Assembly (NCBI GenBank): GCA_965217585.1
Contig: OZ244561.1
Coordinates: 2,336,001-2,400,000 of the forward strand
Origin: Candidatus Latescibacterota bacterium
GTDB lineage: Bacteria > Latescibacterota > UBA2968 > UBA8231
Length of the DNA: 64,000 bases
Reading direction: 5' to 3'
Shown: in pieces, positions 31,285 to 42,286 of the stretch
How the letters are laid out: each line of letters begins with the position of its first letter
Numbering within the stretch: the first letter of the stretch is position 1
Program-made: the position numbers and the translations under genes
Notes under the pieces: generated by a model
Seen by the model: only the letters and a program-made list of their open reading frames with translations
Told to the model about the DNA's origin: nothing
Database searches by the model: none

Positions 31285-34200
31285 CTACTCGAGGTAGAGC
31301 ATGCGCCGGGTATGCACGCCGCCCGGATAGTGCAGGCGCGTGAAGTAAATCCCCGTGGCCACGCTCCGAGCCGCGGCGTCGCGGACGTCCCAGCGCACCC
31401 GGTAGGTGCCGGCCTTCTGCACCTCGTCCACGAGGGTGCGTATGCGCTGCCCGAGGATGTTGTAGATGACCAAGCGCACGGGTCCGGGCGCATCGAGTCG
31501 GTAGAGGATGACGGTGTTGCCGTTGAAGGGGTTGGGCGCGTTGGGCGCCAGGCCCGGCGGCCCGTCCGCGACCGCCGGCTTGGACGACGACTTGATTTTT
31601 TTGACCGTCAGCTCGTAGTAGCCCCACTCGAACGACTCGCCGCTCGCCGCGATGTAATAGGTGCCACCGGCATGGGCGTGAAACGTCACCCGGAACAGGT
31701 GGTGGGAGATTGATTCGTCGCGGGACCGCGTGTTGACAAGGGACTCCCCGTCCGCATCGTAGATCGCGTTGATCTGCGGGAGGCGCAGGGTGAGATCGTT
31801 GGTGGGAATCGCGCCCTTCATGTCGATCCGGTAGGTCCGGCCCTTCTTCAGCTCCACCGCGAACCAGTCGGTGTCGAACTCGTAACCATCTACGTCGTTG
31901 CCGCCTGTTCTTTCCACGAAGATCGGTTTGTAGATGGTGCTCCTGGCCCCGTCCCCGCCCACCTCAACCATGCTGGTGGTGGTCGTGTTGGCGGGCAGGT
32001 CCTCCACGTCCACCACGACGAAGATGTAGCCACGGTGGTCGTGGTCCCCTAACGGCCCGGCCAGAGACGGCTGGGTGGAGATCTCCCCGGTCACCGGCTC
32101 GGTCGATATCCCGGTGACGGTGACCACCGTGCCCTCGACCTTGCCGGCCTCCACCGTGAACACCCTCTCGCCGCCAGCGATCGTCACCGGGATAGCGACC
32201 TTGAGCGGCGCCCCCGCCAGCACCTTCGCCAGCACCTGATTGGGCCCCACATGCTCCAGGGTCACGGAAAGCGGCAGCAGATCGTCGGGGTCGGGGTTGT
32301 GGCGCAGGTCGAGAAGGAGCAGCTCCTCCAGGCCGGAGAACACGCCGTCGGGAAGCGACGTCAGATCGTTGTTGTGCAGATCGAGCAGCCCCAGCTCCTC
32401 CAGGCCGGAGAACACGCCGGCGGGAAGCGACGTCAGAGCGTTGTCTCTCAGCAAGAGGTTCTTCAGCTTCGTCAGGCCGGAGAACACGCCGGCGGGAAGC
32501 GACGTCAGAGCGTTGTCGTGCAGCCAGAGCGTCTTCAGCTTCGTCAGGCCGGAGAACACGCCGGCGGGAAGCGACGTCAGAGCGTTCTCTCTCAGCAAGA
32601 GCTCCTCCAGCTTCGTCAGGCCGGAGAACACGCCAGCGGGAAGCGACGTCAGACCGTTGTTGTACAGACGGAGCAGCTTCAGCGCCTCCAGGTCGGAGAA
32701 CACATCGGCAGGAAGCGACGTCAGAGCGTTGTTGTGCAGCCAGAGCTCCTCCAGCTCCGTCAGGCCGGAGAACACGCCGGCGGGAAGAAGCGACGTCAGA
32801 GCGTTGTTCAGCCTGAGCTTCTCTAGCGCCGTCAGGTCGGAGAACACGCCGGCGGGAAGCGACGTCAGAGCGTTGTCGTACAGCCAGAGCAGCTTCAGCT
32901 TCGTCAGGCCGGAGAACACGCCGGCGGGAAGCGACGTCAGAGCGTTGTCGTACAGATAGAGGCTCTCTAGCGCCGTCAGGTCGGAGAACACGTCAGCGGG
33001 AAGCGCGCTGAGCGTGTTGCGGCTCAGACTGAGGAACGTCAGCGCCGTCAGGCCGGAGAACACGCCGGCGGGAAGCGCGCTGAGCGTGTTGCCGCTCAGA
33101 TTGAGGCTCTCTAGCGCCGTCAGGTCGGAGAACACGTCGGCGTCAGGAAGCGTGCTGAGCGCGTTGCCGCTCAGACTGAGGTACGTCAGCGCCGTCAGGC
33201 CGGAGAACACGTCAGCGCGAAGCGACGTCAGATCGTTGTCGTGCAGATCGAGGCTCTTCAGCGCGTCCAGGTCGGAGAACACGCCGGCGGGAAGCGACGT
33301 CAGATCGTTGTCGTTCAGCCAGAGCTTATCTAGCGCCGTCAGGCCGGAGAAATCACCCGGCTTCAAGGACTGGATGTTATCATCCTCGAGATTGAAAGTA
33401 CCCGTCACGCTGGCCAGTTGCGTTGTCGTCACCTCGGCGCAGTCCGACACGCCGACGATTGCAGCCATGATCGCGTCCCGCACCTGAGCGGTGCGATCGC
33501 AGATGCTGGACAGCTGCCGCGTTCCACCGCCGGGCGCGCCGACGGGATCGTCCTCCCCGTCCGGGTCGGCCGGGTCGTCGGCTTCGACGAAAGTCGACTG
33601 CGGCGCGGCCGGCGTGGCGACGTGGAACCAGCGGGAGCGTTCGCTCACCCCGTGCGCGTTGATCGCCTTGATCCGGTAGGTATACGTCGTGCTTGCAGCC
33701 ACCGTGTCGTCGGTGTACGTCGTCGCCGCCGTGCCCGTATCCGGCACCAGTTCACTGAACTCGCCCCCTTGATCGTTCACGCGCACGCGCCGCAAGATCA
33801 CGTAGCCGGTGATGCTGGCGTCGCCAGGGTCGGCCCAGGTGAGCACCACCTGGCCGAGCGTCGCCGTGGCGGACAGCCCCGTGGGCTGGGCGGGTACGGG
33901 CGCCGCCGGCGTGTCGACGTGGAACCAGAGGGAGCGCTCGCTCACCCCGTACGCGTTGATCGCCTTGATCCGGTAGGTATACGTCGTGCTTGCAGCCACC
34001 GTGTCGTCGGTGTAGGTCGTCGCCGCCGAACCCGTGTCCGCTACCAGCTCATCGAAGTGGCCCTTCTCGTCGGTATCCCGGTTGCGCCGCAAGATCACGT
34101 AGCCGGTGATGCTGTCGTCGTCAGGATCATCCCAAGTCAGGGTTATGGCATCGTGGGACGCCGTGGCGGACAGCCCCGTGGGCTGGGCGGGTGCGGAGTC

Positions 34201-34290
34201 CTCCTGCGCCTGCACTGGTGAGCAGAGCAGGGCCAGCGCCGCGATGGCGGCGAACAGAACGGGGAATCGTCGTCTATCGGTGCGAGTCAT
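31285..34290 (-). CDS. Secreted eukaryote-like protein: 2x FN3, about 15 LRR, PPC-like domain, FlgD/T9SS-type C-terminal domain
   Basis: AGGAGG before ATG 34290; signal peptide; FN3 (LTWDDP..ITGY..YRIKA); 24-aa LRRs; NPFN...IYNILGQ...WD...GIYF. Confidence 0.9.
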   Translation of the reverse strand: MTRTDRRRFPVLFAAIAALALLCSPVQAQEDSAPAQPTGLSATASHDAITLTWDDPDDDSITGYVILRRNRDTDEKGHFDELVADTGSAATTYTDDTVAASTTYTYRIKAINAYGVSERSLWFHVDTPAAPVPAQPTGLSATATLGQVVLTWADPGDASITGYVILRRVRVNDQGGEFSELVPDTGTAATTYTDDTVAASTTYTYRIKAINAHGVSERSRWFHVATPAAPQSTFVEADDPADPDGEDDPVGAPGGGTRQLSSICDRTAQVRDAIMAAIVGVSDCAEVTTTQLASVTGTFNLEDDNIQSLKPGDFSGLTALDKLWLNDNDLTSLPAGVFSDLDALKSLDLHDNDLTSLRADVFSGLTALTYLSLSGNALSTLPDADVFSDLTALESLNLSGNTLSALPAGVFSGLTALTFLSLSRNTLSALPADVFSDLTALESLYLYDNALTSLPAGVFSGLTKLKLLWLYDNALTSLPAGVFSDLTALEKLRLNNALTSLLPAGVFSGLTELEELWLHNNALTSLPADVFSDLEALKLLRLYNNGLTSLPAGVFSGLTKLEELLLRENALTSLPAGVFSGLTKLKTLWLHDNALTSLPAGVFSGLTKLKNLLLRDNALTSLPAGVFSGLEELGLLDLHNNDLTSLPDGVFSGLEELLLLDLRHNPDPDDLLPLSVTLEHVGPNQVLAKVLAGAPLKVAIPVTIAGGERVFTVEAGKVEGTVVTVTGISTEPVTGEISTQPSLAGPLGDHDHRGYIFVVVDVEDLPANTTTTSMVEVGGDGARSTIYKPIFVERTGGNDVDGYEFDTDWFAVELKKGRTYRIDMKGAIPTNDLTLRLPQINAIYDADGESLVNTRSRDESISHHLFRVTFHAHAGGTYYIAASGESFEWGYYELTVKKIKSSSKPAVADGPPGLAPNAPNPFNGNTVILYRLDAPGPVRLVIYNILGQRIRTLVDEVQKAGTYRVRWDVRDAAARSVATGIYFTRLHYPGGVHTRRMLYLE
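32296..33400 (-). repeat. Tandem coding repeats of about 72 bp (LRR units)
   Basis: Recurring cggagaacacgccggcgggaagcgacgtcagagcgtt, about 15 units. Confidence 0.95.
33600..34195 (-). repeat. 297-bp tandem duplication (two FN3 domains)
   Basis: gccgtggcggacagccccgtgggctgggcgggt at 33863 and 34160; long identical stretches. Confidence 0.9.
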
Positions 34291-34603
34291 GGTCGTTCCT
34301 CCTTGTGCTTGTGGGGGGGTATGGGACGCCGGAGCGATAGCGAGAAACCGAGTGCTCAGCCGCTGAGGCCGGCGCAGACTCCGGTGCGTGGATAGCGGTC
34401 TCATGATTCTCCTCCGTTTGGATAGTGAACGTGTTCGGGCAGGCGCAAAAAGAAAGGGCGAACGTCTGTAAATAAGGAACAAACGTTCATATCAGGTCGC
34501 ACAACCAAGGCGACCTCCAGCCCATCGGACCTCGACCAAGAACCGAGCAGGCGCGGCCAAACAGACGTTGGCCGCAGTATGGAAAGAGTGGGTCTTAGAG
34601 AAT

Positions 34604-34619
34604 GGGGGGGGGGGGGGGG
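34604..34619. repeat. G16 homopolymer
   Basis: 16 consecutive G, about 310 bp upstream of the LRR gene start. Confidence 0.9.
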
Positions 34620-34827
34620 TAAACTACTGTTTTTGAACGACTTATGAAATTATATCTGTCGTCCAAAGCTCGGGGCCGGACGCTACATAGGGCCACAGCA
34701 CCAAGCGCTGTCCTATCAGATGACGGGGTATGTACCATTATTTTCGGCCAATATGAATATGCAAATGTCTGCGGTCACTAAAATGCAAACGATTAGGGGG
34801 AAGTCAAGCACGCAGCACAATTTCAGA

Positions 34828-37194
34828 TCAGTAAACTACTGAGACCAACTCGGCAGCCAGCTCGGTGCTCCCATCCCCTTTGACCTTCAACCGCGCTATA
34901 TAATTGCCCGGCGGCACTTGCCCTCCCGTCCCGGTGCGCCCGTCCCACGCCAACCGCAGCGGTCCGGCCATGCCCATCGACTCTACCCCGGCCACGCGCC
35001 GTCCCGCCAAATCGAAAATCTCCAGCTGCACGGGCCGCGCTGTCAAAACATCGACCAGATCCAGTGCGACGACCAACTCGTCGTTGACCCCGTCGCCGTT
35101 GGGCGTCAACACGCTGGGGGCAATGGACATATTGGCCCACAAGGATCGACCCAGCGGCAAGCGCACCACATTGGTGCTGCTTTCCACCAACTCCGCAGCA
35201 TCCCCTGGTTCGACCCGCTGGCGCACGGGCTCGGCCAGACGACTGTCCTCCAGGAACAGCTCAAAGCGAGTGGCGTCGAGGAATATGGCCGCGGCAAAAT
35301 CCACTTCCACCAACTGCCCCGAGCGCACTGGCTGCGGCAATTGCACGGCAAAACCATCCTCCACCGCGGCCACTGCCGCTTCCCGCACCACCCCATCCAC
35401 CCGCACCTGGTCGAACTGCAAATCCGTCGAGGCCTGCACCAATAGTCGGTCAAAGCCGTTGCGCGTGCGCACGGGCCGCACATAGTAGGTGAAAATCTCC
35501 TGCCGGCCCGGTTGCACCAGCACGGGTGCCAGTTCCGCGGCCACCTGCTGGGCCAGGGGCTCGGAAAAATTCAGCACCACCCAATCCAGCAGCGCCCCCA
35601 CCGCCGGATCGCCGGATACCAGCCGCCCTTCCAGCTGCACATAGCGCCGCATGGAGGGCGACTGGAAGGGCTGGTCCGGCTCCAAGTACACCGGACTCCA
35701 CGGACTCCAATCCGCCCCTGGCACAAAGACCGTGTCAATGGGCCCGCGAAAAGAGGGGATGCGCCGCTCCCACTGCCGCTGAGTGATTTCCTTGCCCTCT
35801 GGATTGCGGTATATCACCTCGGTGTCGAGCGTATTGCCCGAGCGGCTGCGCAGCTCCAGATGCGTGCCCCCCGGGGCCTGACCGCCCCAGCGCAAGGCAT
35901 TGATATTCTTCTGTCCCTGTAAATCCAAAATGGGCGAGCGCAGATCTACCTGGACCGGCACGCCGCGGCCAAAGACCTGGAGTTCGGAGATAGTACCAGA
36001 AGCTCCGCAGCCGCGCGCAGCCGCGCCGCCGAACTCGTCGCCGCAGTTGGCGTCCCACGTCTTCCATCTGATGCGCACAAAGCGGACCGGTAGACTGGTA
36101 AAACGGTGATCGGCCAAGCCCTGTACCCGGTTGAGCTGGCCGCCCCAACCGGAGAAGTGCTTGGTCCAGAGCAGCGAGCCGTCCGGGGCCCGCGAACCGT
36201 CCGAGGTCAATACCTCGTAGAAATTGAACGAGAATCCGCGGTACTGGCGGGAAAAGGTGATCAGCCGCACCTGGTCGACCCAGTAAACAGCCCCCAGATC
36301 CAGGGTGATCTGGGCAATCACATCGGCATCGGCCCGGGTCGCCCGGATATTAGACCAGACTGTGCTGATGCGGCCGTCCATCAACTGCAGGGCATTGGCC
36401 AGATTCGGGGTATCGGGCTTCTTGGTATCGACCCCCACGACAATGTCCACGCTGCCGCCTCGCTTGATGGCCCCTTGTACCAGATTGTCGCCAAAGGCCT
36501 CCACCTCGATCTCGACCAGTCGCGCCTCGGGTGCCGCTTTCAGGACCTCTACCCGCACGAAGTGCACTGGGAAGGGCTCGTCCGGGTTCAATTCATAGGT
36601 GATCCGGCGGCGGCGGTCCTCGGTAAAGCGCTCTTTAATCCGGTACGCCAGGGTGCCTTCTATCTGCGTGCGGGTCTCGTCGCGGAACTGTTCGCCGGTG
36701 GACAGCAGCAGATCGAAAATCTCAAAGGGAGGCCCTCGCGCGGAAAAAACCAGATGCACCCGGTGGGCCGAAACCACCCGGCCCAGATCCACTTCGACAA
36801 ACCAGTCCTCGACCCTCTCGTCCAAATCCGGACCCCAGCCTGTGTCCCCGTCCCCGTCCAGCACCCCCGGTGCCTCTAGGGCATTGGAACCCACCCGGCT
36901 GATCCCCCCGCCAAAGGCCACCGCGTCCAGGGCCGCATTGTTGTTCTGGCGCACCGCCACCGGCCGAATGATCCCCTCTCGCGTCAGCTCCACCGCCCCC
37001 AGGGGCAACTCCCACTGGCGCCACTGGGCCGCTGTTGCAAAGCGCAACTCGTCGCCGGCACCCTTTTGCCAAGGGGCCAACAGAATGCCGATGGCGAGCA
37101 AAAACGCCCGGCCTGAATCCATCGCCGCACGACGGAAAATGCCCCCACTCGCCGCCGCATCCCGGCGGATTTCTACTCCCTGCTCCATCGACAC
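34828..37194 (-). CDS. Secreted protein with discoidin-like (F5/8) domains and C-terminal FlgD Ig-like domain
   Basis: VLDGDGDTGW..VEVDLG and LMDGRISTVW..ITLDLG; C-terminal TPNGDGVND..IFDLAGRRV..WDGR..VPPGNY; start uncertain. Confidence 0.72.
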   Translation of the reverse strand: MSMEQGVEIRRDAAASGGIFRRAAMDSGRAFLLAIGILLAPWQKGAGDELRFATAAQWRQWELPLGAVELTREGIIRPVAVRQNNNAALDAVAFGGGISRVGSNALEAPGVLDGDGDTGWGPDLDERVEDWFVEVDLGRVVSAHRVHLVFSARGPPFEIFDLLLSTGEQFRDETRTQIEGTLAYRIKERFTEDRRRRITYELNPDEPFPVHFVRVEVLKAAPEARLVEIEVEAFGDNLVQGAIKRGGSVDIVVGVDTKKPDTPNLANALQLMDGRISTVWSNIRATRADADVIAQITLDLGAVYWVDQVRLITFSRQYRGFSFNFYEVLTSDGSRAPDGSLLWTKHFSGWGGQLNRVQGLADHRFTSLPVRFVRIRWKTWDANCGDEFGGAAARGCGASGTISELQVFGRGVPVQVDLRSPILDLQGQKNINALRWGGQAPGGTHLELRSRSGNTLDTEVIYRNPEGKEITQRQWERRIPSFRGPIDTVFVPGADWSPWSPVYLEPDQPFQSPSMRRYVQLEGRLVSGDPAVGALLDWVVLNFSEPLAQQVAAELAPVLVQPGRQEIFTYYVRPVRTRNGFDRLLVQASTDLQFDQVRVDGVVREAAVAAVEDGFAVQLPQPVRSGQLVEVDFAAAIFLDATRFELFLEDSRLAEPVRQRVEPGDAAELVESSTNVVRLPLGRSLWANMSIAPSVLTPNGDGVNDELVVALDLVDVLTARPVQLEIFDLAGRRVAGVESMGMAGPLRLAWDGRTGTGGQVPPGNYIARLKVKGDGSTELAAELVSVVY

Positions 37195-37258: not shown

Positions 37259-40200
37259 CTAGGCCGGCAGCCCTGCAAAGAGCCGGCTGAACAGGCTGGT
37301 CAAGGGCTCGGTCTCGCCGCGCTCGGCCGCCCTAGCAAAGACTACGCCCGGCTGCGCCGCCCTAGCGGCCCGGCCCAAAATGTGGTAATCGGCCCGGCTA
37401 GGCCGCTGGGCCGCTTCCCGCGCCTCGGTCCAGCCCTGGTTGGTGGCGGCCAAACCCCATAGGGCACGCGGTGCCCGCACCTTGGCCTCCTCCACCGACA
37501 GGCCGTCGCGCCAACAACCGCGCTGAGCGAATAGACTACCATCTTCCCGATAGATCAGCCCGCCGCCCACGTATTGGATCAACTGCTGTTGGTTGCCCCG
37601 CGCCCCCGACAGCGCTAACAGGGCTAGGGGCCCCAAGTCGTTGTCGTCGAAATCGGCCTGCTGGTGGAAAGCCGCCACTAATTCGTCGCTGTACATTTGC
37701 CACTCGTCCCAATCGATCTCTGCGGGCTGCTCGGGCCACTCCTTGCCCGAACCGAGGAAGGGGTTGAAGGAGGCTCCAGACTGCTTGCAGACCTCAAAAC
37801 CGCGCCGCGTCAGTCGGTCGAGTACCTCCAGCGCTCGCTCCAAACCCTCGCGCTGCAGCACCTGGACTAGCAAGCGGTTGAGATCGCGCTTGGCGAACAG
37901 CCGGCTGCCATCCACGGCCACTCCGATCAGCCCCTCCACTTCAGCGCGACCTTCCTCCGTGCGGCACAGCCGCGCCAAACCCCATATCATGCCGTGGTAG
38001 TTGTCGGCCACGTAGCGCCATACATCCGCATCGCGCTGTATGTGTCCGGCCACCGACAGCGCGGTCTCGGCTTCGGCCTGGGCTTCCTCAGTGAGGGGCA
38101 AAAACACCTCTATCTGATCGCCATCGAAATCTAGCTCCATCAGTCGGCAAACGCGCGGATGGACGCGCACTGCGGCCCCGGCCAAACGCTGCGGACGAAA
38201 GGCCACCATCGCGGTGGGCGGCACGTGGAACACCGGGCCGTGGCCCTCGTCCACCAGCACCCGCTGGGCGCTGTATAGCAGCACCCACGAGCGTGCCATG
38301 ATCGCGTCCAGAACCTCAGCCGCTCGGGCCGAACGCCGCGCCACTTCCTCGGCGCGATCCATCTCCCGCTCTACCTGAGGCGCGAACAAAGCCCAGGCCA
38401 TTTCCTCGGGCAGGCCCACTTGGTCGAGATTCAACTCAAAACCCGAGGCAAGCGCGGCCCGGCCGCTAAACAGCGGCCTAGCCCGGAAGTGGAGGTGCTC
38501 CGGGCGCAACAACGCAGAAAAAAGATCCTCCACCCGTTGGGCCACCTGGGCCACCGCCGGTCTGACTAGGGCCTCGGGCGCTTCGCTATCGACGATGCGC
38601 TGCAAGCGCGTATTGGCTTCGACCAAATCCTCGAAGCAGCCTCGGATTGGGTCGAACTCGGTCCCCACTGGCAAAGCAACGGGGGATCCCACCGTCCCCA
38701 CTTGGCGTCCTGGGGCCCACGGATGTGGCACTGGGCGGGCCAAGGTCAGCCCCTCGGACTCGGCGAAGGAAAAGCGCAACTCCGCGCTCGCCAACTCGGC
38801 CCGTATCCCGGCCATACCCAGTAGCTGCTGCAACAAGGCAAAGCGCGGGGACGGGGGCGGGGACGGGGATACCGGACCGGTGGCCAAGCACTGGCCCAGC
38901 GCATTGGCGTCGGGCCGCTCGGCCGCGGCCGTGTTGAACAAAGCGTGGATATTGGCTACGGCCCCGGCCTCGCGCAAAGCACCGTAGGCCATCATGTCGA
39001 TTTCCGGTCCGCCGGCTCCTGCCACCGCGGTTTCCAAGCGCTCGGCCGCGGTGTGGGTCAGGCGGCCCCAGTACACCCAACCCACAGTACTGCGATAAGG
39101 CAGCTCCTCGCCTTTGAGGGTCAGTTGCTCCATGCCGTCTTCGGGCAGTCCCGCCTCGACTAGACGCGCTTTCAACATCTCTTCACTGGGTGCCTGAAAA
39201 GGTGGCACCACCGCCGGGTGCCCGGCGGCCTGGGCGAGGCGACCCATGACCGCCTCGCGCTGCTGGCCGAAATTGAGCCGCGAGACCATACTGGTGGGAC
39301 TGAAGATGAGTTCTATCGGCGCACCATCGGGCAACTGCGGCATGTCGGCGTCGGGCAGGATGCGCGTCACCACCCCTTTGGCACCGTGGCGGTTGCTCAT
39401 GCGGTCGCCCACCCCCACTGCGGCGGGAAAATCCATCCGCGCCGCGGCCGACTCGCTAATGACTAAGCCATCCTCAAACGTGTCCCCATCCCACATGATG
39501 AAGGCGGTCAACAGATTGTAGCCACCCCAAAAGTCGACGGCCCCAGGCTCGTATCCCGTCTGCACTAGGGCCGGCTCGGGTTTGTGGCCCTTGGAGGCCA
39601 AGCGTTGGTCGTACTGCTGGCGGAACCAACCCGTGGAGTGGATCGGTGCCGCTGTATCGGCTGCGCTCGTCCACTGGCGCATCATATTGATGCCCATCAG
39701 GGCGCGATTGGTATCGTCGTGTTCGAGAAAGGGCACCATGGAGGCCGAAAAACCCAAGATGCTGTCGGGCGCTTTGTCGATTCGTTCGAGCTTGCCGTCG
39801 CGGATGCGGGCACCGCGGGCCACTTCCAGCACTCGGCCGATATTGGGCCCTTCGGGGGTGCAGTAGGGGCACACTAGGCCGTATTGGCTGTAGGAGAAAA
39901 CGTCTTGGTCGTCAAAAGGCTCGACGACGACGGGGATCAAAGTCAGCCGCCGCAGATGGGTATAGCGGTCCAGCCAGTTGGTCGCCTGTAGATACTGCGA
40001 AGTTTCCTCCAAGTGGAAGTCGCGCAGCCAGGCGTCCAGCGGCAGCCAGTTGCGCACCAAGTCGCCATCCCAAGCCAACTGCTCGGGGGCCGCCTCCAAC
40101 CTTTGGTCAATAAAGTCGTAGAGCTGCTCGCCCACGCACAGAATCCGCGCTTGGTCGAGTTCGCGCCGGTCGGGATAGGGGACCACGACCCGGTAGTTGC

Positions 40201-40432
40201 CTTCAATGTGGAAAAGGCCATCGCGGTCGGGCCGAGGCAAATCCCGGTACTCAACCTCGACCGAGGCATCGCCGAGTCCCAAGCTCAGTTTAATGGAAAA
40301 AGTATAAGAGTCCTGTTGTTCGACTTGATAGTCGGCCAGCGGCAAGCGCTCGCCCAAAAGCCGGGGCAGTCGCTGGTGGACGAAAAGGTCAAAAGATTCC
40401 CTATGCCAAGGTACGTCGAGATTCAATGTCAT
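37259..40432 (-). CDS. Single-chain minimised RNA polymerase beta/beta' fusion-like protein (1057 aa)
   Basis: Collinear RpoB motifs ([45 protein letters not shown]) then RpoC motifs (FSGR..[23 protein letters not shown]); uninterrupted ORF. Confidence 0.9.
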   Translation of the reverse strand: [1057 protein letters not shown]

Positions 40433-41028
40433 TGATGTTCCTCCGGGTTATGGATAGCCTGCCAAGCCTGTGAGAGCTGGCGGCGGCCGTGGTGCAGACG
40501 CGACTTTACGGTGCCTTCGGGAATGCCCAGTCGCTCGGCGGCGTCCCGCACCTCGACTTGGGCGTCGTAGATCAGACGGAAAACCTCGCGCTTGTCCTCG
40601 GACAACTCTTGTACCTGTCGCCGCAGCCAGCGCTGCTGGTCAGCCCACTCCACTTGGGCGTCGGGGCGCTCAGACGCGGCCTCAATCATCCATTCGGGCA
40701 CTTGCTGCGTTTCCTGCTCCACGGTTTCAGACAGCATTTCCAGCCGCTGCTCCCGCCGCCGCCGCACAGTGCGCAGGTGCGTCAGGGAAAGATGAGTAGC
40801 AATGCGGAACAGCCAAGCAGCCACAGACCCTCGACCACTCCATTGGCCAGCCCGGTTCCACACCCGCAAGAAAACCTCTTGTACTACATCGTTAGCACTC
40901 GCATCGTCGCGGACGATGCAGCGCACGTGATGGTGGATCTGCTCCCGATAGCGCTCAAAGAACTGCTGGAACGCGCATGCGTCGCGTTCTTTTATTTGCG
41001 CTATAAGTTGTGGATCCGGTATCTGCAT
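40429..41028 (-). CDS. ECF sigma-70 factor
   Basis: Region 2 DVVQEVFLRVW..WLFRIA; region 4 AERLGIPEGTVKSRLHHGR; ATGA overlap with downstream gene. Confidence 0.93.
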   Translation of the reverse strand: MQIPDPQLIAQIKERDACAFQQFFERYREQIHHHVRCIVRDDASANDVVQEVFLRVWNRAGQWSGRGSVAAWLFRIATHLSLTHLRTVRRRREQRLEMLSETVEQETQQVPEWMIEAASERPDAQVEWADQQRWLRRQVQELSEDKREVFRLIYDAQVEVRDAAERLGIPEGTVKSRLHHGRRQLSQAWQAIHNPEEHQ

Positions 41029-41046
41029 CGAGGCCTCTGCAGATAA

Positions 41047-41073
41047 AGACGCCGCCCGGAAAGTACAGGTTCA
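41047..41073 (-). promoter_or_regulatory. ECF-type promoter TGAACC-N16-CGTCT upstream of the sigma gene
   Basis: Minus strand reads TGAACC tgtactttccgggcgg CGTCT, ending 18 nt before the ATG; fits the AAC/CGT ECF pattern. Confidence 0.6.
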
Positions 41074-41329
41074 AGGGCGAAGGTGAAAAAGCCCGGAAAT
41101 CTCATTGAAGGCTGGCTTCCTCCTTGAGTTGACCCACTAGTCGAGCATGGTATTTTACAGCAGTCCTGAATGACTTGAACGATTCGATAGGCGGATCGTC
41201 TTGTGAATATTATTCTGCGTCTGTCTGCGTCCATCTGCGGATCATCTTGTGAATGGTTTTGCTATACCACCCACCGCCTGAAGACCAGCTTCAACCCTTA
41301 CAGGCGCTCTTGCGCCAGATCGAGACCCC

Positions 41330-42286
41330 ATGAGCCTAACGCCAGCCCAACTCGACCAATTCCACCGCGACGGCTATATCATCGTTCCCGACCTATTCAC
41401 GGCTGACGAGATGGACGCTGCCCGAGCGGCGATGGAACAGACTTTCTACGGCCAATCCTTCCAGCAATGGCTGGCCGATTGCGACCGCGGTGAAGCGGCC
41501 GGGGTCTCGGACGGCTTCACCACTACGCACGACCACTCCGAGGGACGCTCGCAATTTCCCGTGGGCGCACCGGCCTTGGATCGGCTGATAGAAAACGAGA
41601 CGTATCTCGACATTTTTGAGCAATGCCTAGGCGCAAAAGCCAGCTACTGCAACGCCCACCTTTTTATGCGCTCGGGGCCTACTGACAAGCGCCATCCCGA
41701 CAATCCCTGGGAGGGGTACCACATTGACCACTACACCAATTGCCTGCTGCCGCCCCACGACCAGACAGGCCGTTTTGACTACGTCAATTCGGGGGTGTAT
41801 CTGCACGATGTCGAAGACGACGGTGCCCCCATGCTGCTCATCCCCGGCTCGCACAAAGTAGCTGGCCCCGCTTTTGTGCGGGCACTTGCCCAAGGCAACG
41901 CCGCAGGTGGGTCCTTCAAAGACCTTCGCCAAGCCACCGAACTGGCTGCCCCGGTTCCCGCCACTGGCCGACGGGGGACGGCTGCGTTCTACTCGTCGTA
42001 CCTAGTCCACGCAGCGCAACCCTTTGCCAATAAGCGCACGCAGCGCGCCTTTTGGACCTTGTCCATGTGCCGCTGCGACAACGATCGCTGGACCCGATTC
42101 GCCAATCCCTTCATCTACGGCGAACGCGAGCACATGCTGCCCTTTTTCACGGCCACCACGCCCCGAGTGCGCGGCCTGTTCGGCTGGCCCGAACCCGGAC
42201 ACCCGTACTTCACCAGCCAAACCTTGGACCTCTTGGAACATACCCTACCCGGTATTGATACAGGCCCCTATCGCGATGACAGTTGA
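41330..42286 (+). CDS. PhyH family Fe/2OG dioxygenase
   Basis: LTPAQLDQFHRDGY, YHIDH, IPGSH, YLVHAA. Confidence 0.85.
   Translation: MSLTPAQLDQFHRDGYIIVPDLFTADEMDAARAAMEQTFYGQSFQQWLADCDRGEAAGVSDGFTTTHDHSEGRSQFPVGAPALDRLIENETYLDIFEQCLGAKASYCNAHLFMRSGPTDKRHPDNPWEGYHIDHYTNCLLPPHDQTGRFDYVNSGVYLHDVEDDGAPMLLIPGSHKVAGPAFVRALAQGNAAGGSFKDLRQATELAAPVPATGRRGTAAFYSSYLVHAAQPFANKRTQRAFWTLSMCRCDNDRWTRFANPFIYGEREHMLPFFTATTPRVRGLFGWPEPGHPYFTSQTLDLLEHTLPGIDTGPYRDDS

Follow-up and report, generated by a model that had tools for sequence, protein, structure and literature searches.

The locus

In this report, we describe a two-gene module from the genome of a Candidatus Latescibacterota bacterium (assembly GCA_965217585.1), in which a sigma factor of the extracytoplasmic function (ECF) type is paired with a strongly reduced, single-chain homologue of the β and β' subunits of RNA polymerase. 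The module lies in a stretch of 64,000 nucleotides (contig OZ244561.1, positions 2,336,001-2,400,000 of the forward strand), hereafter the window, to which all coordinates refer unless another locus is named. Both genes are on the minus strand. The sigma gene (P0002, 40429..41028) encodes 199 amino acids and is followed by the gene for the polymerase homologue (P0001, 37259..40432), an intact open reading frame (ORF) of 1057 amino acids and 117 kDa that we will call the mini-polymerase. The TGA stop codon of the former overlaps the ATG of the latter in an ATGA at 40432-40429. The sigma protein is built of sigma-2, a conserved linker and sigma-4; it matches the Pfam families Sigma70_r2 and Sigma70_r4_2 and no other sigma domains, and its score of 101.8 bits against the ECF superfamily model TIGR02937 passes the cut-off of 42.9.

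The canonical rpoB (open frame of 1271 amino acids) and rpoC (1366 amino acids) lie side by side on the same 7.32-Mb contig, about 3 Mb away, so that the mini-polymerase is an extra gene and not the housekeeping enzyme. According to Pfam, none of its neighbours in the window is a ribosomal-protein gene. On these points the findings agree with an earlier prediction made from the letters of the sequence alone (the original prediction), which had noted an ECF sigma gene whose stop overlaps the next start and an absence of ribosomal-protein neighbours, and had called for a normal rpoBC to be confirmed elsewhere in the genome.

Anatomy of the mini-polymerase

The kinship of the mini-polymerase with both large subunits was found at the level of domains, profiles and predicted structure. 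The Pfam families matched above cut-off are RNA_pol_Rpb2_3 (residues 146-210), RNA_pol_Rpb2_6 (E value 3.7e-32) and RNA_pol_Rpb1_2 (residues 741-792, E value 8.9e-13). In profile-profile alignments with hhalign, columns 92-553 of the family alignment correspond to residues 403-1267 of the organism's own RpoB with a probability of 100%, and columns 589-986 to residues 266-778 of its own RpoC with a probability of 99.8%. Because Pfam and the alignments to RpoB and RpoC concur, the RpoB and then RpoC blocks that the original prediction had seen in native order within one intact frame can be taken as real homology. A profile search of the PDB retrieved β with an E value of 1.3e-68 and β' with one of 5.3e-45. 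AlphaFold2, given a 70-sequence alignment, predicts one compact fold with a mean predicted local distance difference test (pLDDT) of 90.9, a predicted template modelling score (pTM) of 0.88 and a single disordered loop at residues 725-735, and the best solved-structure matches of this model in Foldseek are bacterial and plastid β and β' chains.

The protein is about 40% of the size of its parents, with 1057 amino acids against 2637 in the open frames of its own RpoB and RpoC taken together. The NCBIfam models for rpoB, rpoC and fused rpoBC give partial matches, all far under cut-off: 167 bits against 801 for the rpoB equivalog TIGR02013 and 93 against 963 for the rpoC equivalog TIGR02386, neither being matched over its full length, and 157 and 147 bits against 5372 and 4632 for the fused models NF007172 and NF011417, respectively. 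The defining feature of the two-double-psi-barrel superfamily is present, with a β barrel that carries R348 and K352 and a β' barrel that carries D768, D770 and D772.

The β-derived part, as delimited by hhalign and BLASTP segments, spans residues ~90-555 (38768..40165; this and the following features are on the minus strand). It has kept the fork-loop block (Rpb2_3), the PFLEHDD..NMMRQ loop, the E-D pair (E320-D321), the double-psi barrel with its NRHGAKG motif (39374..39394) and the C-terminal β segments. Residues 1-402 of RpoB and the flap (RpoB ~795-1033) are lost, together with other insertions. The loss of the flap is seen in the hhalign alignment, where this region has no counterpart, as well as in Pfam, where positions 98-221 of the Rpb2_6 profile remain unmatched. 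As to residues 1-91 of the mini-polymerase, the PDB profile search finds in them a weak trace of the first ~140 residues of RpoB only.

The β'-derived part retains both clamp helices along with switch-2 block, DFDGD barrel, funnel helices, SGARG block and bridge helix, but has lost RpoC residues 1-265, about 20 residues at the position of the rudder and everything beyond the bridge helix. The clamp-helix homologue is a two-helix coiled coil at residues 591-641 (38510..38662), with AlphaFold2 helices at 591-615 and 620-641; it aligns with residues 266-316 of the organism's own RpoC in hhalign and also as the first phmmer domain, and N607, P619 and L622 are invariant in it (alignment A1). The β' clamp helices are the main docking site of sigma-2 in bacterial polymerase. 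The magnesium-binding triad DFDGD, formed by D768, D770 and D772, sits in the β' double-psi barrel at 38117..38131. The bridge helix (residues 980-1008, 37409..37495) is defined by the AlphaFold2 model, by the hhalign alignment, which reaches residue 778 of RpoC, and by the third phmmer domain, and is preceded by the SGARG F-loop block. Judging from these alignments, all the blocks that contact the RNA-DNA hybrid or the catalytic metals in a canonical polymerase are retained. The flap, the lobes and the jaw are gone, as are the greater parts of the clamp and of the trigger loop.

The C-terminal tail (residues 1018-1057, 37262..37381) ranks with the best conserved segments of the family; R1021, A1022, P1028, G1029, A1035, L1044, R1050 and G1054 are invariant in it (alignment A2). 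Its reading as the first arm of the trigger loop was not borne out, as hhalign, run against residues 1-987 of the RpoC frame, finds no counterpart for it. The last RpoC block of the original prediction, which had been taken for a trigger loop, lies in this unaligned tail, and this part of the prediction is not supported.

Another residue deserves mention in its own right. The family has a glutamine, Q149 (at about 39986-39988), where the aligned canonical β has the aspartate of the FMDQ block, which we take to be a rifampicin-resistance hot spot; if so, the pocket of the mini-enzyme would not be a canonical rifamycin site. The idea that the protein is a rifamycin decoy is neither supported nor excluded by this observation.

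Conservation of the active centre

The catalytic residues were compared across 70 members of the family. R252, D321, R348 and R385 are present in all 70, D770 in 69, D768 and D772 in 66 each, and K352 in 64. The full aspartate triad is found in 61 members, the protein of the window included. That these residues are kept at an overall identity of 43-50% indicates that selection acts on the active centre.

Family, distribution and selection

The search for related proteins gave 533 matches at an E value of at most 0.001 among 8000 scored candidates. The best 120 of them range from 94% down to 43% identity and are mostly full length, at about 1000-1070 amino acids, with a minority of shorter ones; among the matches listed, all named relatives are labelled "hypothetical". 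A pattern search of genome contigs, with one genome per species, returned 197 matches, of which 169 encode a relative, and 79 loci were kept, so that the locus comparisons below concern 80 loci, the window being the last. The 79 loci share the same architecture and have full-length ORFs in independent assemblies. The labels of the metagenome-assembled genomes place them in the Latescibacterota, Poribacteria, Chloroflexota (Anaerolineae, Ktedonobacteraceae and Herpetosiphonaceae), Planctomycetota, Armatimonadota, Hydrogenedentota, one genus of Verrucomicrobiota and the Gemmatimonadota.

In the phylum of the window, the mini-polymerase is present in 66 of 168 genomes and the sigma factor in 63, and 62 of the 67 genomes with either gene have both. 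The four genomes with the mini-polymerase only hold, respectively, a remnant, an N-terminally truncated copy, a fragment at a contig edge and a deletion of the sigma gene; in the single genome with the sigma factor only, that gene is at a contig edge. This is the only case of the sigma without the mini-polymerase in these 168 genomes, none being found in a complete context. Within the genus of the window, 21 of the 30 other genomes carry the mini-polymerase. As some complete single-contig genomes of the phylum are devoid of the gene and others hold remnants, the gene is accessory and is occasionally lost. Remnants or truncated copies were found in genomes G141 and G151 and as a second fragment in G042. 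One genome (G076) holds two full copies of both genes, and in another the mini-polymerase match comes in two pieces with a short overlap (G014:C8:794715-797852); this might reflect an insertion or a problem with the frame.

The ratio of nonsynonymous to synonymous substitution rates (dN/dS) against 14 close orthologues is 0.13-0.18, which indicates purifying selection; the value of about 0.15 is far from the neutrality that the original prediction had named as a threat to its case. An assembly chimera, another such threat, is excluded by the independent assemblies and by a contig from a DNA run that covers the β-to-β' junction with 0 differences (X4 record 30, 38486-38820).

The sigma partner

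An orthologous sigma gene (88-435 bits to that of the window) lies upstream of the mini-polymerase on the same strand in 77 of the 80 loci, adjoining it in 70 and having one gene between the two in the other 7. The exceptions are a locus that begins at a contig edge (L053), one with a sigma deletion (L014) and one with an IS200-like insertion (L068). In the latter, from a member of the Chthonomonadaceae, an IS200-like transposase ORF stands upstream (L068 4107-4538), no sigma gene lies beside the mini-polymerase, and the conserved promoter is found directly before the mini-polymerase gene (L068 5146-5175). The linker between sigma-2 and sigma-4 has the form P111-x-W113-M-I-D...P122, in which W113 is invariant and P111, P122 and E127 are near-invariant (alignment A3, 45 orthologues). 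Such a linker is unusual for ECF sigmas.

Thus, the original prediction of an accessory RNA polymerase paralogue, under 40% of the normal size and with a dedicated sigma, is upheld by the existence of a family, by the linkage in 77 of 80 loci, by the co-occurrence of the two genes, by purifying selection and by the normal rpoBC elsewhere on the contig.

The association of the two proteins was also modelled, using residues 1-800 of the mini-polymerase and the sigma factor in three runs and three controls. The interface score ipSAE (interaction prediction score from aligned errors) is 0.56 in all three runs, the best of the three controls reaching 0.00; at least 40% of the contacts agree between runs, and the pLDDT of the partner is 66. 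This result is rated as weak support: the mark for ipSAE is reached by 58 of 80 solved complexes and by 2 of 110 mismatched pairs, and the range up to 0.60 holds only 7 of the 80 solved complexes and both mismatches. Moreover, because sigma-polymerase complexes have already been solved, the pass may reflect likeness to them only. That the clamp helices survive in a protein cut down this far, and that this protein has an obligate sigma, points to sigma binding, whether the protein is an enzyme or a mimic of one.

Promoter and regulon

The sigma gene is preceded by an ordinary ECF-type promoter, TTGAACC-N14-GGCGTC (41074-41048, minus strand), with its -35 element TTGAAC at 41069..41074 and its -10 element GGCGTC at 41048..41053, 19 nt before the ATG; the latter reads GGTGTC in most other clades. 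A Shine-Dalgarno sequence, AGAGG, is at 41034-41038 on the same strand. This promoter belongs to a conserved, cross-phylum element, TGAAC(C/T)T...GG(T/C)GTC, in which exactly 18 nt separate GAAC from GTC. A strict pattern finds it in 64 of the 77 regions upstream of a sigma gene and a looser one in 72, and a scan of whole loci located it farther upstream in seven of the loci that the strict pattern had missed. The position of an ordinary ECF-type promoter before the sigma gene implies autoregulation. As a side observation, the stretch of ~20 nt that separates the -10 element from the start codon (41026-41047) is also alike across phyla, ...TA(G/C)(A/T)(G/A)TAGAGGG...; this likeness goes further than a Shine-Dalgarno sequence, and it may point to an initially transcribed region that is conserved.

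The promoter seems to have few or no companions. In the genome of the window, the strict pattern has 3 matches against 4.2 expected, and just the module's own promoter precedes a gene. With a position weight matrix (PWM) built in part from the window's own site and those of close relatives, this promoter scores 34.5 bits and the next best site 16.2 (14.6 Mb, both strands). In five further complete genomes, 30 of 34 pattern matches were inspected, and those that are intergenic and about 20 nt before a start codon are the five sigma promoters. A possible extra site, candidate L110, lies 76 nt before an ORF of 474 amino acids in a Poribacteria genome. No convincing site beyond the module's own operon was found by pattern and PWM in the genome of the window and by pattern in the five others. 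As far as the sequence can show, the regulon of the sigma would be its own operon and the mini-polymerase its output.

Insertions, neighbours and expression

Clustering of ORFs across the 80 loci revealed no third gene common to the clades, the sigma and the mini-polymerase being the only conserved ones. The flanking genes are ordinary and clade-specific. A conserved non-coding element was looked for as well and not found, the 500 nt downstream being alike within clades only; the gene that comes next is often convergent. Different lineages have taken up three kinds of gene within the operon. In five Latescibacterota loci (L042, L045, L056, L060 and L064; at about 6162-7958 in L042), a half-transporter of the ABC exporter type (ABC_membrane and ABC_tran) stands between the sigma and the mini-polymerase. 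In one Chloroflexota locus (L077 3560-7230), two ABC exporter genes stand between the promoter and the sigma gene. ABC exporters have thus entered the operon in two independent events. The third kind encodes a protein of 381 amino acids that has no Pfam match. The L077 insertion has duplicated the -10 region, a second copy of which adjoins the sigma gene without a -35 element.

Downstream of the module, genes of the serine-β-lactamase family were found at two Chloroflexota loci, in one case 14 nt away on the same strand, and an MFS exporter at one locus. These genes suggest, as a lead and not as a result, that a toxic compound, perhaps one that targets polymerase, is what the module responds to; the ABC, MFS and β-lactamase families are common.

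Two distant lineages carry DDE transposase genes directly downstream of the module (L025 11423-13718 and L067 11288-12667), which fits a position of the module in variable, transfer-prone regions. In a Latescibacterota locus, a second ECF-type sigma, fused to ankyrin repeats (481 amino acids), is encoded 716 nt downstream of the mini-polymerase (L029 11863-13305). In the window itself, the same strand encodes two large proteins downstream of the module (31285-37194, minus strand), both resembling cargo of type IX secretion: one of 788 amino acids with an F5/8 type C domain and a CHU_C/FlgD_ig C-terminal domain, the other of 1065 amino acids with two fn3 domains, a long LRR array, PPC and a Por_Secre_tail-like end. 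This neighbourhood is not kept in other clades. On the other side, between the module and a divergent PhyH-family gene (41330-42286, plus strand), the summed contig depth is much higher at 41159-41259, up to 554 and in all four runs; fragments of numerous contigs match this segment, suggesting an element that is repeated or widespread.

A hint of expression comes from metatranscriptome contigs (three runs, two studies) that cover parts of both genes at 90-95% identity; it is a weak one, since the contigs come from relatives and DNA carry-over is possible. Other parts of the region have no cover among the contigs of the RNA libraries, which counts neither for nor against expression.

Known systems compared

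The mini-polymerase shares with cellular RpoB and RpoC, and with full-length β-β' fusions, the order β then β', both barrels, the DFDGD motif, the basic β residues, the fork loop and the clamp and bridge helices. It differs from them and from the fusions (~2800-2900 amino acids) in being far shorter and accessory, beside a normal rpoBC. Nonetheless, single-chain two-barrel polymerases are a kind already known. Orf6 of pGKL2, a cytoplasmic plasmid of Kluyveromyces lactis, is described as an Rpb2::Rpb1 fusion of 982 amino acids (PMC2919709), and is likewise a single chain of similar size, β-like then β'-like, with about half of each parent deleted; by the same description, it is set apart by being eukaryote-derived, plasmid-borne and without a sigma. 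The β barrels of killer plasmids are reported to retain the flap (sandwich-barrel hybrid motif, SBHM) insert (PMC7824862), which is deleted in the mini-polymerase. YonO, from the SPβ prophage of Bacillus subtilis, is described as a single chain of ~100 kDa with very distant homology to multisubunit polymerases (PMC5467207). The two are alike as single polypeptides of about this mass related to the multisubunit enzymes; going by that description, the mini-polymerase is set apart by being strongly β/β'-like and chromosomal, with a dedicated ECF sigma and no prophage context.

Two other comparisons concern the arrangement of the genes. As in ECF sigma/anti-sigma pairs, a translationally coupled, co-transcribed partner follows the sigma, under an autoregulating promoter of the ECF type; unlike in those pairs, the partner is a homologue of the polymerase core that belongs to no anti-sigma Pfam family, and no regulon is detectable beyond the operon. 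In actinomycetes such as Nonomuraea, duplicated full-length rpoB paralogues are described (PMC5431353), so that there too a second polymerase-subunit gene exists besides the housekeeping one; that full-length β, however, joins the normal core according to this source, whereas the mini-polymerase is fused, trimmed and provided with its own sigma.

A full-text literature search turned up no published account of a sigma-coupled, trimmed β-β' fusion, and a polymerase-subunit neighbour is not mentioned in the main text of the ECF reclassification paper (PMC7826278), which places its group-wise gene contexts in supplements. None of the nearest known systems combines a chromosomal, flap-less mini-core of the bacterial type with a dedicated sigma and a dedicated promoter. 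The claim that no described system is like this one agrees with the literature search as regards the sigma-coupled trimmed fusion, but does not extend to the single-chain two-barrel polymerase as such, of which YonO and Orf6 are examples.

Minimal enzyme or polymerase mimic

The reading that we prefer, at a probability of about 0.5, is that of a sigma-dependent, self-amplifying minimal RNA polymerase. A bacterial rpoB-rpoC pair would have undergone fusion and lost about 60% of its sequence, giving rise to a self-contained two-gene module whose ECF sigma drives one promoter, its own. The output of this promoter would be the sigma itself and, by translational coupling through the ATGA overlap, the 117-kDa single-chain polymerase. 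Sigma-2 would dock on the retained clamp helices to form a two-protein holoenzyme, and this holoenzyme would open the TGAAC-N-GGYGTC promoter and make RNA, so that the module amplifies itself. In this scheme we infer sigma binding, catalysis and the identity of the polymerase, mini or host core, that uses the promoter. Several findings weigh against it. The aspartate triad is altered in 9 of the 70 members (D772N in 4, D768S/Y/N in 4 and D770A in 1), several of which also have a changed K352. In a FastTree phylogeny, these substitutions arose at least 4-5 times; sister pairs share them, with terminal branches 0.09-0.22 substitutions per site long and ORFs of full length, which means that canonical catalysis is not required for the protein to be kept. 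In the hhalign comparison with residues 1-987 of the RpoC frame, no trigger loop was detected. The flap is what holds sigma-4 in cellular polymerases and, since it is deleted, sigma-4 cannot sit here as it does in the cellular enzyme. The complex prediction lends just weak support to sigma binding. Finally, a polymerase whose own promoter is the sole recognisable one has no evident output, and the canonical ECF spacing of the -35 and -10 elements would also suit the host core enzyme.

The main rival is a polymerase-core mimic that needs no catalysis, which would bind the sigma through the clamp helices as a decoy, an anti-sigma or a sigma store, the operon being transcribed by the host core with the sigma; in a variant of this idea, a ligand in the conserved active-centre cleft (a nucleoside triphosphate, an alarmone or a polymerase-targeting natural product) might control sigma release, making the protein a target-mimic sensor or sponge. 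The gene occupies the usual position of an ECF anti-sigma, translationally coupled to its sigma, the clamp helices are retained with the flap gone, the promoter spacing is the canonical one, the triad substitutions recur and persist, and the predicted complex, at 0.56 against 0.00, gives weak support here as well. Of the three inserted kinds of gene, two are independent ABC exporters (five Latescibacterota loci and one Chloroflexota locus), to which the serine-β-lactamase-family gene downstream in two Chloroflexota loci and the MFS exporter in one can be added, but this theme of exporters and resistance is post hoc and involves common families. Moreover, a pure sigma-binder would need neither barrels, fork loop, NMMRQ loop, bridge helix nor catalytic residues, all of which are conserved in most lineages, and, as the sigma has no recognisable promoter but its own and was never found apart from the mini-polymerase, an anti-sigma would regulate just itself. 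We regard a mimic as less likely than the enzyme, but as clearly ahead of the readings that follow. The original prediction had left the choice between a minimal enzyme and a mimic in the anti-sigma position, and both halves of it find backing, the former in the intact triad of 61 of 70 members and the hybrid-binding blocks, the latter in the nine members in which the triad is altered. A pure anti-sigma role is weakened by a sigma that has no detectable regulon and never occurs alone, and a pure enzyme role by variants that look catalytically dead. Enzyme and mimic may be stages of one mechanism, with binding always and synthesis in most lineages.

The module could also be a transcription unit belonging to a mobile element, phage or plasmid now settled in the chromosome, in the manner of YonO on SPβ or Orf6 on pGKL2, and would then serve the element and not the cell. 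Its patchy presence across at least six phyla and in 21 of the 30 other genomes of the genus, the DDE transposases at L025 and L067, the IS200-like gene at L068, and the remnants or double copies in some genomes are in line with this. We nevertheless consider it improbable, as no further gene is conserved beside the pair, the flanking genes are ordinary and differ between clades, and the searches of mobile elements point elsewhere: in tblastn, 0 of 32 phage and 0 of 68 plasmid records cover at least 80% of the protein, giving just pieces of canonical or phage β and β'; the 50,697 phage records hold no full-length relative; the matches in PHROG belong to families of β or β' length that cover the protein in part only; and a library of viral structures holds no single-chain equivalent, only polymerase subunits of giant viruses and phages. 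Among the defence models of PADLOC, none matched the polymerase, and the sigma has one weak match of the helix-turn-helix type (E value 2.7e-4). As for a decaying relic or an assembly artefact without function, to which the remnants in G141, G151 and G042 might lend colour, we give it almost no credence: it is refuted for practical purposes by the dN/dS of 0.13-0.18, the full-length ORFs at 79 loci from independent assemblies, the high-confidence predicted fold, the conserved promoter and the DNA contig across the fusion junction.

Returning to the sigma-dependent minimal polymerase, a bolder form of this reading can be put forward more tentatively. The module might be an autonomous second transcription system present in several phyla, in which a 117-kDa chain with its sigma on the clamp helices, and without a flap, serves one dedicated self-amplifying promoter; it would then be the smallest known sigma-dependent RNA polymerase of the cellular type. 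Cells may turn to such a second system when their main enzyme is impaired, for instance by natural products that target polymerase, a proposal that we make because the operon has acquired exporters in two lineages.

Meaning of the module

If the mini-polymerase is active, it would provide the minimal part list of a sigma-responsive polymerase of the bacterial type, devoid of α, ω, flap, lobes, jaw and full trigger loop, and would bear both on sigma-dependent initiation and on the reduction of two-barrel polymerases. It would also be a compact two-gene transcription system, orthogonal to that of the host, whose promoter is known. If it is a mimic of the core, it would represent a new class of sigma regulator made from the sigma's own target. 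The choice between enzyme and mimic is directly testable, as this small module has a defined promoter and numerous natural variants, some of them apparently catalytically dead. Either way, the textbook view of a single RNA polymerase core per bacterium would need a footnote for at least six phyla.

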